This document shows positions 279-16,823 of a DNA stretch of 64,000 nucleotides, piece after piece; within the stretch, counting starts at the first letter, position 1; every line of letters starts with the position of its first letter. Position numbers and translations under genes: made by a program. Source of the DNA: Tubiluchus corallicola (Eukaryota > Animalia > Priapulida); the NCBI GenBank assembly GCA_030141605.1, contig JAQGDQ010001041.1, positions 1 to 64,000 of the forward strand, written 5' to 3'. The notes below the pieces were generated by a model, which saw only the letters and a list, made by a program, of their open reading frames with translations, was not told where the DNA came from and did no database searches.

Positions 279-362
<84 letters not shown>
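279..362. repeat. (TAC)n microsatellite abutting the element's left end
   Basis: Perfect TAC run of about 28 units ending at 362. Confidence 0.95.
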
Positions 363-1065
363 AGTAGGATAGATGTTACACCTCTGGCCGATTTCCCGGG
401 GGGGGTGGGGATTTCCCCGGGGGGGTGGGGAAAAACACCCCTAAAAAAGTGCGAAAATCCGGGAAAACCCCTAAAAAAGTGTGAAAACCCGTGTGAAAGT
501 GCGCACGTGACCGAAATCGACGAAAAAGCGCGAAAAACAAAGAAAAACGAAGAAAAGGCGTGTGAAACGAGGTAAAAATTTTCCATTTTTTCCCTCCCGC
601 ATGGCTTCATTTGGATCGAATGACCTTGAACTCTAGGTCACGTGACCAAAGTTCATTGACCCCTGGCCCCTGGATGGCTTCTTTTTTTGACGCCCCATTT
701 TAAACCGCGCGAAAGTGCGTGAAAGCGCGTGAAAGCGCATGAAAGCGTGTGAAAGTGTGTGAAAGTGTGTGAAACGAGGTAAAAAGCGCCTCAAACGAAG
801 AAAAAGGGAGAAGTGGAGTTCCCGCCGAGGACTAATTAGTGCTAATTGGCGCTAATTGGCGCTAATTGGGGAGCCCCTGCCACCCCTCCGCCGCGTGCAA
901 ACGTCCGTCCCGGGGGTCGGGGACACCCCCCCTGCAACCCACCCCTCCGTCGCGTGGAATCGTCCACTGCAGGCAATGAGGGAAATCTTTTTCCCGCCAC
1001 TCGCGCAGTGCCGGCCCTTTTCCGCGACCACTTCTCTCTCTCGGGTGTCCTCCCTTTTCCGCGAC
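363..1065 (+). repeat. Left terminal inverted repeat (703 bp)
   Basis: Reverse complement of 2722-3450 up to TTCCGCGAC. Mirrored ORFs (359..610 - and 3203..3577 +) have identical translations over the shared part. Confidence 0.95.
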
Positions 1066-1120
1066 CACTTCTCTCGCGGGTTTAGATGTGTGTGTGTGTG
1101 TGTGTGTGTGCGTGTGGAGA

Positions 1121-1174
1121 TTTATTTCAAACGCCAAAGTTCGATAAATGCATTTTCACAAATCTTTTTTTATT
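1121..1174 (-). terminator. Candidate polyadenylation signals of the element cassette
   Basis: AATAAA on the minus strand at 1174-1169 and 1126-1121, in an AT-rich stretch downstream of the TBP-like stop and just before the left TIR. Confidence 0.5.
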
Positions 1175-1322
1175 GATGGATTACAAAAAATTTTTTTTAC
1201 ATTTTTTATGCAAAATACATACGTGCTAAAACTAGATTATTATTATTATTATGGTGACATGATAGTTCTACATTTTACGTTTTTTTCGCAAATTACACAA
1301 ATTACGCAAAATTACAGTAAAA

Positions 1323-1907
1323 CTACACTAATGACGACGAGCGAGTACATGGATTGTCGTCGTCGATGTGATACAGACAAACGTTATTGTTGTTAAAAAC
1401 GAATTCGTTAAATTTGCGGAAAACGCGAGAGAAATCCTCGACCTTTGTCCCGCCCATCATTATTATGCTTCCGGTGTGAAAAATGTTCAGAGTAATTTGC
1501 TCGCATTTGCAAGTTAGTTTGGGAAATAGTTCCACTTCGTAAAACACTTCTCTAAAAGAATGCGTCGAAGGACGAACGAGTTCTTCGTACAGTGCACCCA
1601 GTTTCAATCTGCAGCGAATTTTGGCTCTGGCGGTGATGGTGCGAATTGCGATCCCGTCGGCGGGCGTCAGTCCGAGACCTTTCGAGAGTTCTTCGATCGC
1701 ATTGCGTAGTACTTTTTCCTCCGAAAAACCGTTGGCCACCACGGAGCCGGAGGCAAAAATCATCAGCGTCCCGCCCAGTCGCTTTAGCAGAACCATTTGC
1801 GGTTTCCTTTCGTAGCGTCTTCCGCCTGTTCTCCGCCAGAGTTCGTTCAGATCGAAGCGCTGCGAGAACGAAGCAGTGGCGACGATGTTGACCGTTTGGA
1901 CTGACAC
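1323..1907 (-). CDS. Divergent TATA-binding-protein (TBP)-fold protein, about 194 aa; no ATG before the domain (GTG at 1907)
   Basis: Two TBP repeats: VNIVATASFSQRFDL...TLMIFASGSVVANG and FYEVELFPKL...TLNIFHTGSIIMMGGTK (compare TBP LIFSSGKMVCTG and YEPELFPGL). Length equals a bare TBP core. Confidence 0.85.
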   Translation of the reverse strand: MSVQTVNIVATASFSQRFDLNELWRRTGGRRYERKPQMVLLKRLGGTLMIFASGSVVANGFSEEKVLRNAIEELSKGLGLTPADGIAIRTITARAKIRCRLKLGALYEELVRPSTHSFREVFYEVELFPKLTCKCEQITLNIFHTGSIIMMGGTKVEDFSRVFRKFNEFVFNNNNVCLYHIDDDNPCTRSSSLV

Positions 1908-2359
1908 GTTAGTACGTAGTTGGCAATCGTTTCGGACGCCCGAACCGCTCTGCCTCGTCCGTTGCTCTGCCAACGTATGGCGGGCGGCGGGTGCTCGCTT
2001 TCCAGATCTTCTACGCGTATGACCACGCGATTTTTGGGGAGATGTTTTTTGACGAAATCGTACATCTCTGCCCCCTTGACGTAGGTGATCCTGCCTCTGG
2101 TGGTCTGTCGTAGAATGTTTTCCAATTCTGCGTACTCGATCATTCCCTCCTCCCACGAGATGCCGTGTATGTGTCTGATTAGGTAGTTGTAGGTGGATCG
2201 CTTGTGCTGGGGAACGCGATTCCAGGGGTGGGGCGGTTTGAAGGTGTAGTTGTGATATATGCCGGTCTCTATTTCGCGAATTACCAAATTTTTGACCAGG
2301 TATTCTTCTTTTCCGCACTGGAAGGCATCTATGGTGAGAACTATGCTCGATTCAGACAT
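1847..2359 (-). CDS. 170-aa protein, probable DnaQ/DEDD-like exonuclease fold (possibly degenerate)
   Basis: ATG start and globular composition. Motifs IDAFQ..EYLVKNLVI, FKPPHPW, IHGISWEEG, YVKGAE and EDLE recall DnaQ-like proteins of invertebrate Polinton-like elements and DNA viruses (from memory). The ExoI DxE motif is incomplete. Confidence 0.6.
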   Translation of the reverse strand: MSESSIVLTIDAFQCGKEEYLVKNLVIREIETGIYHNYTFKPPHPWNRVPQHKRSTYNYLIRHIHGISWEEGMIEYAELENILRQTTRGRITYVKGAEMYDFVKKHLPKNRVVIRVEDLESEHPPPAIRWQSNGRGRAVRASETIANYVLTCQSKRSTSSPLLRSRSASI

Positions 2360-2702
2360 CTGTGACGATGGGGGGTCCTTCTACGCCGTCGGCAACGAGT
2401 TTTCCTTCGATGACGATTTGCTTGTGATTGTTCACAAATTCCAGAGACTTGATTTTTTCGAAGGTGTATTTTTTTATGACCTTGTTGGGGGCACTCTTGC
2501 GTGCGTTGGCGCGCTTGCCGCCCCGCGTCCCCGCTTGTTGTTGCTTGCGAGGAACGGTGGTTAGAGGTTGTTTGAAATCCTGCAAGAGAAGAAGAAGAAC
2601 AATAGTTATAGTATTGTTGTTCGCTAACGACAACTAGGCATTTTTGATGAGCCATTCTTTCAGATTTCTAGGTTTTTTGGGGGCAGTGGGGGTGAGCACC
2701 AT
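2352..2702 (-). CDS. Small basic protein with a histone H3-tail-like segment; in-frame TAG at 2636-2634 (short intron or nonsense mutation)
   Basis: Strong Kozak GCCGCCG-ATG-G at 2702 gives MVLTPTAPKKPRNLKEWLIKNA*. The same frame continues to DFKQPLTTVPRKQQQAGTRGGKRANARKSAPNKVIKK...TDV*. A pyrimidine tract plus CAG acceptor ends at 2580. Confidence 0.6.
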
Positions 2703-2721
2703 CGGCGGCGATGGAGGGGGC

Positions 2722-3450
2722 GTCGCGGAAAAGGGAGGACACCCGAGAGAGAGAGAAGTGGTCGCGGAAAAGGGCCGGCACTGCGCGAGTGGCGGGAAAA
2801 AGATTTCCCTCATTGCCTGCAGTGGACGATTCCACGCGACGGAGGGGTGGGTTGCAGGGGGGGGGGGTGTCCCCGACCCCCGGGACGGACGTTTGCATGC
2901 GGCGGAGGGGTGGCAGGGGCTCCCCAATTAGCGCCAATTAGCGCCAATTAGCACTAATTAGTCCTCGGCGGGAACTCCACTTCTCCCTTTTTCTTCGTTT
3001 GAGGCGCTTTTTACCTCGTTTCACACACTTTCACACACTTTCACACGCTTTCATGCGCTTTCACACGCTTTCACGCGCTTTCATACACTTTCGCGCGGTT
3101 TCGCGCGGTTTAAAATGGGGCGTCAAAAAAAGAAGCCATCCAGGGGCCAGGGGTCAATGAACTTTGGTCACGTGACCTAGAGTTCAAGGTCATTCGATCC
3201 AAATGAAGCCGTGCGGGAGGGAAAAAATGGAAAATTTTTACCTCGTTTCACACGCCTTTTCTTCGTTTTTCTTTGTTTTTCGCGCTTTTTCGTCGATTTC
3301 GGTCACGTGCGCACTTTCACACGGGTTTTCACACTTTTTTAGGGGTTTTCCCGGATTTTCGCACTTTTTTAGGGGTGTTTTTCCCCACCCCCCCGGGGAA
3401 ATCCCCACCCCCCCCGGGAAATCGGCCAGAGGTGTAACATCTATCCTACT
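2722..3450 (-). repeat. Right terminal inverted repeat (729 bp)
   Basis: Differs from the left TIR by two extra 10-bp GAAA units, a longer G-run, one extra CT unit and a few substitutions. Confidence 0.95.
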
Positions 3451-3510
3451 CACAGTTTCTGTACGTAGTAATGTTTGTACTTATTTACAAGTGAGGCTAA
3501 TATACAGTAA

Positions 3511-3925
3511 GGGCATGGTCAGACTAGTGAGTTTTCTGTCGCGAGATTTCTTTCTGACAGCAAACTTGCAAGTGTAAACTGCTTTGCGAGTTACTGTAAA
3601 AAATTGCAAACTCGGCACCGGTTGACGTGAGTTGATTCACTGTCTAGTGTGAAAGCTTCAGGGAGTTACTCTCAACACTTGTGTGACAATGAACAGTGAA
3701 GTGAGTGTCAGCTTGCACTTACTGTCAGAGAGTAACTCGCAGCAAGTTTTGCCCTCTAGTCTGAACATGTTTGTGAGTTACTGTCTAGTGTGAAAGCCTC
3801 AAGGAGTTACTCTCAACACTTGTGTGACAATAAACAGTGAAGTGAGTGTCAGCTCGCACTTACTGTCACAGAGTAACTTGCAGCAAGTTTTGCTCTCTAG
3901 TCTGAATGCACTTGCGAGTTACTTG
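3511..3925. mobile_element. MITE-like repeat with an internal 141-bp duplication
   Basis: Inverted ends CATGGTCAGACTAG / CTAGTCTGAACATG (3756-3769). CTGTCTAGTGTGAAAGC recurs at 3640 and 3781. Related sequence lies at 18186-19102 (reverse) and about 31535-31620. Confidence 0.65.
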
Positions 3926-4574
3926 CGAATGCACCAGTTTAAAGTTAAAGTAAAAGTTTGGTAATTATGATTTCATTTGATAATTTTCACGTAATTAAGC
4001 GTCACTGAAAAGTTCAACTGTATTTCTCAAAGGAGTCTTTATGTTTTTATGAATATTTTAGCTAAACACATGCCAGATTTTATAAAATAAGTTTTAAAGA
4101 CCATCTAAAACATCACAAGATATCACATAATTTTATTAACACACAACTTATTTTCTCATGTAAACTTACTTTCAGTAATTTCAGTGTAATTTCAATAACA
4201 CAAACTGCTACGTATACCTTCGCGTACGGCTATGAACACAAAAACAACGTTAAAAGCCAAAGTTCAGATATCATTAAGCAATGCCGTCAGATACGCAAAT
4301 TCTATTTGCTTAAATCACAGCTAAAATAACAGAAATAAAATATGCCTAATCCCGCATAATAGTACAAACCCAAAGTAAATCCTTAAACCAACTGTAGATA
4401 AAACAGGGTCATATAAAAGACATGTAAGGAGTTAACATTAAAGATTTCTGTGAGTGTTTTGCTGTTATATGGAAGTTAGCACTGTCTATTTGATGTAGAG
4501 TTGTTCAGAGAATGTTCTCTTGTATTTTCTATGTACATTAGGCTTTGTCCCAAACAAGTAACAAGTTTCACGAC

Positions 4575-11574: not shown

Positions 11575-11751
11575 CTAACTAGCTGTGAGAATTTTGTACA
11601 AGTCTTCATCGCCTAGGCACCCCTTGGTAAATTCTTCCTCGGTTAACTTGCCGTCGCTGTTTTCGTCCATCCGATCAAAAATCATTTTTGCTCGCGCTTC
11701 TGGGGTATCCTGCTGTTGAGTGACCTCTGCTCCGAGCATGTCGTAGATGGC
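11575..11751 (-). CDS. ncs-2: Neuronal calcium sensor 2-like, last coding exon (EF-hand 4)
   Basis: Acceptor TTTTAG|GCC. Encodes AIYDMLGAEVTQQQDTPEARAKMIFDRMDENSDGKLTEEEFTKGCLGDEDLYKILTAS*. 177 nt, phase 0. Confidence 0.93.
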   Translation of the reverse strand, partial: AIYDMLGAEVTQQQDTPEARAKMIFDRMDENSDGKLTEEEFTKGCLGDEDLYKILTAS

Positions 11752-14117: not shown

Positions 14118-14284
14118 TTTTAGAAAAATGTACAAGTTTTAATATAAGTTTTATCATCTATTTACCTGGACTATTTTAGAAAAATATATAAGTTTTAATA
14201 TAAGTTCTATCATCTATGTACCTGGCTTATTTTAGAAAAATATATAAGTTTTAATATAAGTTTTATCATCTATGTACCTGGATT
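14118..14284. repeat. 56-bp tandem triplication including the NCS exon donor site
   Basis: ACCTGG occurs at 14164, 14220 and 14276, each preceded by the same AT-rich block. Confidence 0.9.
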
Positions 14285-14550
14285 ATTCGAACCATTTCGC
14301 TCAATTCTATCGTTCCGTTTCCATCCACATCGTACATTCTAAACGCCCACTTGAGTTTCTGCTCCGGCGTTCCGCTTGACGTCACGTTGATGGCAAGAAG
14401 GAACTCCCTGAAGTCGATGGAACCGGAATTGTCTTGGTCGAACGTTCTGAAGACGTGATCACAGAAGGTCTCCGCATTACCAGAGGGGAAGAACTGCTTG
14501 TAAACCTCTAAGAACTTTTTCCTAGTCAGCTGACCATTTGGACAGTCTTG
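14278..14550 (-). CDS. ncs-2: Neuronal calcium sensor 2-like, middle coding exon (EF1 DCPxG, EF2, EF3)
   Basis: Acceptor TTTGCAG|CAA and donor CAG|GTACAT. Encodes QDCPNG...[14 protein letters not shown]...[33 protein letters not shown]. 273 nt, phase 0. Closely resembles C. elegans NCS-2 as recalled. Confidence 0.95.
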
Positions 14551-14618
14551 CTGCAAAGAAAAATCAAATGGTCAATGTTACGTAACACCTACAAGAACAA
14601 TAATTAGTTAAATAATAA

Positions 14619-15293: not shown

Positions 15294-15723
15294 TAATGAA
15301 TACATGACGCATTTGTGTCACACAAAACGGTGCCCACGGGACACACATTGCATTAACCACGCAACCGTGTGACGTTTCTTTGCGAACCTCTAATGACAAA
15401 ATGCGTCAATTTAGTTAAACTAGAATTAATGATTCGCACTGCACTTTTATCCTATATTCCCTTGATGTCACAATGCTTTTAAAAGTTCAAAATGAGACAA
15501 GTCAACTCTGACAGCATTTATACTGATGGTAGATATGTTGGACTGTTGGTGTTCTGTTCCAGTTAACAAGTTTTTTGTCTCTAAACCAAGCTTGGTTTTC
15601 ATTATGAACATCTTAATGCCAATTAGTGAAAGGCACTGACTCACTTTCCAGTGTGGACCACGGACTCAATAAAAAATTTATTAATTTTATTAGCAAGATA
15701 AAGTAATTTATACTTTTGCTTAG

Positions 15724-16101
15724 TTAAGGAAGAGTGTGCCATGAACGGTCTGATTATTTTTTCAAACTTTAAGCACTGTTACCTAAACTTGTTTCAAATG
15801 ACTTGCCATCAAAATGACGGTGCCCAATGGTCATCGCGGGAGTTTACACAGCGTTAATGCTAATGCAAGCCCCATGTGCAATAAGAATGCATAGTTATAT
15901 GAATTTTCAAAACGAATCTTTTTAGCTTCATCTACGAACTGTGTTTTTTCTAGTGCTTTAGTATTTGTTAGAACAAAGAAGACTCCCGCGATGACCATTG
16001 GGCGCCGTCATTTTGATGGCAAGTCATTTAAAACAAGTTTAGGTAACAATGCTTAAAGTTTGAAAAAATAATCAGAGCATTCAAGGCACACTCTTCTCTA
16101 A
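15724..16101. mobile_element. Fold-back MITE with ~115-bp TIRs and TTAA/CTAA flanks
   Basis: 15728-15843 is the reverse complement of about 15982-16097. Related arm fragments lie near 46580-46730 and 48130-48270. Confidence 0.85.
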
Positions 16102-16823
16102 CGCAGTCATTTGTGTACTGCTGAACAAAATAGCAAAGTTAAAAATTGCCGGTTTTCAAAATAGACATTATTACCATAAACATTAATTCATTATTATGTC
16201 ATTTTGACCTTCAACAATATGCAAACTACAGTCTGATAATAACAAAATTATCAATACCGATTCAAACAAGTGCGTTTAGATTTCACAAATGTGGGAACCA
16301 CAAAACTAACGCTTGGTTTTGACTTCTAGTGAAAATAGTCCAGTGAAAAAAGCTCGTGTTAGAGAATTTATTGTTAAAAACACTGTTACTGGCACAGAAG
16401 AACTAGTGTAAAGTGAAATTAAGCAAGAAATGTGAATCTGTCAGCAGGGTGTCAGCTAAAGTAGCCCTGCTGTACTTGAAAGTTATTACAAATAGATGTA
16501 AACATACGTTAATATTTTAACTATTATAATATTTCTTTTTAACGTGTATTAAAAATTCTTTTCAATTTTTGCTGTCAGAAATAAAAAAACACCAAAGTTT
16601 TTCAAGAAGTGAATCATGACAAACCTTGAAAAACCAGCATGAATCGTATTTCTTGTTCATTTATGGCCCTACGAAAGTTTTGCGAATAATGACAATACTA
16701 AATATTAAGATAGATATTATTTACTTAAAATTAAGTGCAATTTCTGATATCTGATATATATATATATATATATTTATTTATATGTGTTTATATATATATG
16801 TTTATGTATATGTTTACGATAGA

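Follow-up and report, generated by a model that had tools for sequence, protein, structure and literature searches.

Structure and ends of the element

We analyzed a stretch of 64,000 nucleotides from the priapulid Tubiluchus corallicola (assembly GCA_030141605.1, contig JAQGDQ010001041.1, positions 1 to 64,000; hereafter "the window"), in which positions 363-3450 form an element of 3,088 bp bounded by two terminal inverted repeats (TIRs) and carrying a cassette of three genes. An earlier sequence-only reading had described this unit as a small relative of Polintons that is CpG-rich, nearly half TIR and AG...CT-ended, with three co-oriented overlapping open reading frames (ORFs), AATAAA signals downstream of them and no gene for mobility or replication; all of these structural features are confirmed. 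The two inverted arms make up 46% of the element's length, and their alignment has 700 identical columns out of 729 (96%), with 26 gap columns and 3 substitutions. The termini read 5'-AGTAGG...CCTACT-3' (AG...CT type), and the element as a whole has an observed/expected CpG ratio of 1.22, its interior one of 1.36 and the remaining window one of 0.72. The interior (1,656 bp) is filled by three overlapping frames, all on the minus strand (Table 1). Among interior frames of at least 40 amino acids (aa), Pfam and fold searches returned only a TATA-binding protein (TBP) and a DnaQ-like protein; no DNA polymerase B of the protein-primed type (pPolB) or retroviral-type integrase was found among these frames, nor, with the same frame list and Pfam, any gene for a packaging ATPase, a protease or a capsid protein.

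Replication of Polintons is protein-primed at the ends of the element, and for integration they use an integrase of their own. The genes that define them are protein-primed PolB and the retroviral-type integrase (PMC6431247, PMC10748475; PMC and bioRxiv identifiers here and below refer to excerpts of the sources). Their TIRs range from 100 to 1,500 bp (PMC10748475), an interval into which both arms of the element fall (703 and 729 bp). The commonest Maverick end motif, (AGT)2//(ACT)2, beside which (AG)3//(CT)3 also occurs, was defined on vertebrate elements (PMC8097293), and the ends of the element agree with it at 5/6 bases.

Table 1. Features of the element and of its left border (positions in the window)
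Feature	Position	Strand	Description
(TAC)28 host microsatellite	279-362		adjoins left end of element
Left TIR	363-1065		703 bp; begins AGTAGG; 10- and 20-bp tandem units inside
(TG)15 microsatellite	1087-1116		between poly(A) signals and left TIR
Two AATAAA polyadenylation-type signals	1169-1174, 1121-1126	minus	
ORF3, TBP-like core, both repeats	1323-1898	minus	overlaps ORF2 end
ORF2	1847-2359	minus	170 aa, DnaQ/DEDD fold; ATG overlaps ORF1 stop
ORF1 body	2352-2579	minus	75 aa, basic
Predicted intron	2580-2634	minus	49-55 nt; acceptor 2580, donors 2634 or 2628
22-codon frame	2634-2702	minus	opened by ATG 2702, which has a strong start context and lies 20 bp inside right TIR
10 bp common to TIR inner end and second upstream form	2722-2731		predicted microhomology deletion breakpoint
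Right TIR	2722-3450		729 bp; terminates CCTACT

Proteins encoded by the cassette

The sequence-only reading had called the three products a TBP-like protein, a DnaQ-like protein and a mimic of the histone H3 tail. The first two calls are supported (by Pfam and by fold, respectively), while the third is supported by a motif match and not by profiles. The frame 1922-1326 matches Pfam TBP (PF00352) in two stretches (E = 8e-22; 77.3 bits against a cut-off of 22.9), residues 9-172 of ORF3 align with solved TBPs (best E = 2.9e-9), and among the matches listed for ORF3, 31/35 are PDB TBP sequences at E < 1e-4. ORF3 keeps the NIVAT strand of the first repeat, three of the four intercalating Phe and both Glu of the second stirrup, and has lost the first intercalating Phe and the Asn of the second repeat; we take these Phe to intercalate into DNA and the two Glu to contact TFIIB. 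Its atlas neighbours are two TBP clusters that are 75% and 59% viral and one cluster that is 58% eukaryotic. The ORF3 frame is open from 2351, but the fold begins ahead of any ATG, the first (1796) lying 34 residues inside it. A stop-free frame of 143 codons across ORF2 was recovered in 0.8% of 20,000 synonymous shuffles of ORF2 (P ~0.008, uncorrected for the number of frames considered). ORF1 and ORF3 might thus be made as one read-through protein, i.e., a TBP with a histone-tail-like N-terminus.

A word-based search (183 candidates) found a single TBP-like relative, P0001, with 59% identity and no longer forms, and TBP-like queries found no match among viral and metagenome contigs. ORF2 likewise has a close relative, P0002 (62% identity), which conserves the tail overlapping the first TBP strand. 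As P0001 and P0002 each come from a contig of 1,855 bp, probably the same one, the overlapping ORF2-TBP pair is probably conserved in another genome, at ~60% identity. Two further loci (L001 and L002) were rejected as TBP-like matches: both belong to structural regions of phages, and the short matches in them are off-frame. We also rejected a splice at the start of the TBP-like core (perfect branch-point heptamer at 1914-1908, candidate acceptor at 1901), since the window copy is a minority variant at 1913; the heptamer is further undercut by P0002, which has a different residue at the codon of position 1913.

ORF2 has no Pfam match. Its family comprises 653 relatives at E ≤ 0.001 among 1.84 billion representative sequences, and a structure model built from an alignment of 92 of the 150 relatives listed reached a predicted local distance difference test (pLDDT) score of 92, whereas the single-sequence model reached 37 and had no fold match. 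The top viral fold match is an unnamed entry (E = 2e-11) and the best named one (E = 6e-11) comes from Drosophila-associated adintovirus 2; after the adintovirus and ichnovirus entries, the matches in the viral set are DnaQ/DEDD nucleases. In PDB, ORF2 matches exonuclease domains of PolC/DnaQ at E = 2.6e-4 to 9e-4 and, less closely, Maelstrom at E = 1.9e-3 to 7e-3; its atlas score to a Maelstrom cluster is 0.86; on this model, kinship with Maelstrom proper would be at the level of fold only. Ichnovirus (polydnavirus) ORFs were 4 of the 7 best viral fold matches (ranks 3, 4, 5 and 7); by modeled fold, these link the Polinton family of ORF2 to wasp viruses.

One related stretch was found when ORF2 was compared to viral contigs. 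A relative encoded in viral contig L003 has 30% identity to ORF2 over 88 aa (E = 2e-12); its gene lies behind those for an A32 ATPase, a PLA2-like protein and double-jelly-roll capsid proteins. A published Polinton map gives the order "FtsK PLA2X Penton Hexon MAEL .. ITR" (PMC8502044), and from gene order and fold we infer that the ORF2 family is the one labelled "MAEL" there. Positions 1-7120 of L003 represent a partial adintovirus contig with ATPase, PLA2-like, protease-like and capsid genes, and its family member retains the acidic and Cys/His residues. In ORF2, on the other hand, position 9 is Thr (acidic in 83/92 relatives), position 24 is Asn (acidic in 90/92), and the C-terminal Cys/His motif present in 105 of 131 relatives of at least 145 aa is missing; the losses at position 9 and of the Cys/His motif are common to three other close relatives. 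Because of these losses, ORF2 is predicted to be a pseudo-nuclease without a canonical DEDD site. Other searches with this family were negative: Pfam gave no family matching more than one of 93 aligned members, the family profile found nothing below E = 0.26 among PDB sequences, the word-based homologue search with ORF2 gave 0 matches, and a P0003 query had no match in viral contigs.

ORF1 contains PRKQ (2552-2541) and, 12 residues downstream, ARKSAP (2504-2487), which we take to be co-linear with residues 16-19 and 25-30 of histone H3, around K18 and K27. ARKSAP arises with a frequency of 5e-6 in residue shuffles of ORF1 and in 0 of 3,000 simulated interiors (ARKS alone occurs in 247 of the 3,000); allowing for a few dozen H3-tail hexamers, the probability is roughly 1e-4 to 1e-3. 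The same hexapeptide has been reported as a histone mimic in SARS-CoV-2 Orf8 (bioRxiv 10.1101/2021.11.10.468057). The H3-like frame (2633-2355) contains no ATG and would need the predicted intron to gain a start codon. No acceptor-like site in the interior is richer in pyrimidines than the one at 2580 (13/14), and both candidate donors are weak, yet in phase with an ATG at 2655. Unspliced, the frame from this ATG (2655-2341, minus strand) encodes 104 aa with an arginine-rich, protamine-like end that overlaps ORF1, and has no Pfam match. The sequence-only reading had placed the first ATG of the cassette 20 bp inside the right TIR; the position (2702) is right, but the frame opens for 22 codons only and hits a stop ahead of the ORF1 body.

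Copy number and junctions

We placed contigs of four runs (X1, X2, X3 and X5) on positions 1120-4500 of the window; 69-75% of the element's words are present in 4/6 listed runs, from two studies. Depth is continuous and high over 1120-3450. Summed cassette depth is 151-504 times that of the flank in X1 and 223-361 times in X2, and in X3 the TIR and cassette reach 12-31 times the flank, with single contigs at depths of 536 (1309-2053) and 1,026 (2181-2595) over a unique flank at 32.7; the X3 depth at 2072 (8,112; ~250 times the flank) was excluded from the ratios as an outlier. TIR depth (133-317, 150-179 and 12-15 times the flank in X1, X2 and X3, respectively) is at or below cassette depth in each run. 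Both the TIR and the cassette occur in multiple copies in two independent samples, which supports a unit that is not single-copy. That TIR depth does not exceed cassette depth argues against a larger pool of other cargo sharing this TIR. Run X5 gave only scattered low-depth matches, and the element is missing from it at 85% likeness; the X5 flank contig has 33 differing letters and 10 gaps in 296 and hence provides no clean empty-site control.

The sequence-only reading had proposed read depth as a check for extrachromosomal linear copies. Depth gave no sign of an episomal burst: a sample-specific burst was rejected, as an adjoining host repeat falls from 1,347 times the flank in X1 to 48 times in X3, the same drop as that of the element.

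In 3/4 runs, contigs (2, 4 and 1 in X1, X2 and X3, respectively) track the region upstream of ORF1 to position 2731 and then diverge from the window. Since the 10 bp at 2722-2731 occur both at the inner end of the TIR and in this second form, the junction hints at a deletion that may have used this microhomology. In X3, the inner junction of the left TIR is among the best-supported loose ends (letters match 1066-1078 by eye), and the region of the right TIR-ORF1 junction has high depth. Between 1793 and 2072, 7 differences from the majority are listed for the window copy. Frequent coding indels in all three runs that hold the element are multiples of three (1355 and 2534, in trinucleotide runs), and X2 is the only run for which deletions of one base within frames are listed.

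Several other variants were seen in these runs. X3 contains a diverged relative over 1737-2149 (65 differences in 413 aligned bases, ~84% identity) at single-copy depth, for which X1 and X2 have matching joints. It also contains a second, multi-copy subfamily over 1919-2056 (~88% identity, depth 232); both are forms of the ORF2-TBP overlap. An unexplained depth spike of ~8,100 over 2024-2249, part of ORF2, is 15 times the depth of the other cassette regions in X3 and absent from X1 and X2. In X2, a joint of depth 427 leads from 1185 back to 1120, and some copies may hence have the poly(A)-signal region duplicated in tandem.

Surroundings in the window

The element is surrounded by repeat-rich, intron-containing eukaryotic DNA. 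The window contains no second copy of it and no Rfam match. Of 175 candidate frames, 121 were scanned, and no Polinton core gene was present among these; two are exons of an EF-hand (calmodulin-like) gene of the host, at 11578-11751 and 14269-14571 on the minus strand (Pfam E down to 5e-17). The adjoining host repeat (3519-3925) is a separate high-copy repeat with two 141-bp units, ~70 bp from the right end of the element, with dozens of different flanks. A short fold-back resembling a miniature inverted-repeat transposable element occupies 15723-16102, with 121-nt arms that are 93% complementary around 138 nt.

Origin of the element

The ends, the TIR length and the cargo all point to Polintons, and a Polinton origin, as proposed by the sequence-only reading, is thus supported; homology to Polinton genes comes from the presence of the ORF2 family in an adintovirus contig and from the adintovirus fold match. 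The element is not an autonomous Polinton, as it lacks pPolB, integrase, ATPase, protease and capsid genes. We consider it slightly more probable than not that the element arose by deletion from a Polinton (adintovirus), is non-autonomous and retained the terminal accessory module of its parent, trapped between the TIRs by one deletion. At the 10-bp microhomology, this single deletion would have brought the inner end of a TIR next to the beginning of the last gene module of the parent, the order of which would have been ORF1, MAEL/DnaQ-like gene, TBP-like gene, poly(A) signals and the other TIR. As its ends are intact and it has no enzymes, the element would be copied and inserted in trans by a full-length helper through their common ends. 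If the CpG-rich TIR drives expression of the cargo, the TBP-like product would direct transcription initiation to promoters of the element. The ORF1 peptide would lure silencing enzymes or readers as a decoy of H3K27, and ORF2, without catalytic activity, would bind nucleic acids and act on small-RNA silencing, as Maelstrom does.

A number of findings weigh against this interpretation. No target-site duplication was found: Polintons duplicate 5-8 bp, usually 6, and no exact repeat of 6-9 bp was found at the ends with boundary shifts of -6 to +6. The nearest candidate matches at 5/6 positions and requires the left end to be moved by 3, next to a left flank that is a microsatellite; the (TAC)28 tract may have erased the duplication. 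With regard to copy number, contig depth is not copy number and overlapping contigs inflate the X1 and X2 sums, TIR depth stays below the twofold excess predicted by two TIRs per cassette, and no single contig covers the whole unit, so that the 3.1-kb state of most cassette copies is an assumption. The sequence of the second junction has a median of only 14-21 bases and may be a local variant. The terminal 20-mer had 0 matches in viral and metagenome contigs, i.e., no helper with this TIR was found there, and contig L003 contains no TBP-like gene. As to the cargo, neither ORF1 nor the TBP core has an ATG of its own, and their translation would require a splice, a non-AUG start, a frameshift or read-through; ARKSAP was chosen post hoc, and ORF1 gave nothing significant against Pfam, PHROGs and PDB, with no profile link to histones.

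It is unlikely, in our judgment, that the element is instead a selected regulatory satellite, or a segment of a bi- or multipartite Polinton-like virus, existing as a free linear packaged molecule whose products aid a helper or sister segments in trans. The window copy has all three frames open, its genes have a common theme, and the frequent indels in multiples of three also fit (weakly, given the trinucleotide runs), as do the related ORF2-TBP contig, which is close in size to the interior, and the segments of Vesanto virus (3.3-5.8 kb with inverted terminal repeats; PMC8363768). However, the multipartite option, one of three offered by the sequence-only reading, is made less likely by a TIR depth that is no higher than cassette depth in any of three runs, contrary to what many segments with common ends would produce (segments with diverged TIRs would escape this comparison). 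Moreover, the tenfold fall in depth ratio from X1 to X3 is mirrored by the neighbouring host repeat, which leaves no sign of episomal amplification, the window copy is chromosomal, and the ORF2 family is a normal gene of monopartite adintoviruses. Among the three options, a deletion derivative moved by a helper fits best.

The sequence-only reading had also argued that the neat fit of the cassette between the TIRs speaks for a designed unit rather than a random deletion. This argument is weakened because the ATG frame has only 22 codons, because ORF2 belongs to an ordinary Polinton accessory gene family that is mapped near the ITR (PMC8502044), and because a second junction with a 10-bp overlap exists. 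We regard as doubtful a Polinton satellite selected as a stand-alone gene-control module, in which an H3K27 decoy, a Maelstrom-like decoy of small-RNA silencing and the satellite's own TBP would be amplified and supplied in trans to a helper; the corollary, a polintovirus split into a structural genome and a regulatory mini-genome, seems to us just as tentative.

A further possibility, to which we assign a low probability, is that most of the depth comes from longer Polintons carrying the cassette beside one TIR, the 3.1-kb form being rare or a one-off internal deletion. TIR depth below twice the cassette depth, the second upstream junction in three runs, the lack of any contig spanning the whole unit and the departures of the window copy from the majority would all fit such a population, and tens to hundreds of Mavericks per genome do occur (PMC8097293). 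On the other hand, the inner junction of the left TIR is among the best-supported loose ends of X3, the region of the right TIR-ORF1 junction is covered at high depth, which stays high down to 1120, and the arms are nearly identical (3 substitutions), which implies that the copy is young. Finally, a foldback or DDE transposon of unrelated origin that picked up part of a Polinton as the source of the ends, or misassembly as that of the inverted repeat, is very improbable: the absence of a target-site duplication and the one-base departure from the commonest Maverick motif would fit the former, but ends, TIR length and cargo are all Polinton-like, and an artefact is contradicted by arms that differ by indels and substitutions and by the recovery of TIR, interior and left inner junction in independent runs.

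Comparison with known systems

Non-autonomous Polintons were reportedly described by Kapitonov and Jurka in 2006. Like these, the element has Polinton ends without core genes, is multi-copy and presumably moves in trans; unlike these, it carries a compact three-gene cassette with poly(A) signals instead of being gene-less or palindromic. Long TIRs, AG...CT ends and CpG richness are shared with animal Polintons/Mavericks (adintoviruses) and particularly with the "mael" group (PMC8502044, bioRxiv 10.1101/2025.02.07.637071, PMC8097293, PMC10748475), as is an accessory gene of the ORF2 family, which lies behind the capsid gene there. The element differs from Polintons in size (3.1 kb as compared to 13-25 kb), in its missing core genes, in the absence of a target duplication from this copy and in the addition of TBP-like and H3-like genes, and its ORF2 differs from most "mael" family members in lacking the acidic and Cys/His residues. 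Segments of the Drosophila Vesanto virus are similar in size (3-6 kb), inverted terminal repeats and incomplete gene set (PMC8363768), but they are defined by the co-occurrence of up to twelve segments, whereas the copy described here is chromosomal and no sister segment is evident.

The individual proteins also have counterparts. TBP is labelled in a MELD-virus figure legend in a section on non-animal datasets (PMC8502044); ORF3 resembles the TBPs of MELD and large DNA viruses in being virus-borne with a divergent two-repeat core, and differs from the MELD-virus TBP in its location in a Polinton derivative of an animal, in its overlap with a MAEL-type gene and in the lack of an ATG where the fold begins. 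ORF1 shares the identical ARKSAP with the Orf8 mimic, here from sequence match alone, and differs from it in having a second H3-like stretch (PRKQ) ahead of this motif and in being a short basic frame of a transposon-like element. ORF2 has the same fold as the Maelstrom MAEL domain and DnaQ/DEDD exonucleases, but is shorter and has neither a canonical DEDD site nor the C-terminal Cys/His motif. Our literature searches, which covered few subscription papers, found no paper on a TIR-bounded unit of TBP, MAEL and histone-mimic genes, and no TBP gene or H3K27 hexapeptide in an animal Polinton module.

Implications

How Polintons evade germ-line silencing and run their own transcription is an open question, and the element isolates within 1.7 kb three candidate factors (TBP-like, MAEL-like and H3K27 mimic), each small enough for in vitro tests. 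If the mini-element is maintained for its cargo genes, it would represent a functional satellite of an animal Polinton; if it is not, it still points to an undescribed Polinton lineage with its own TBP.

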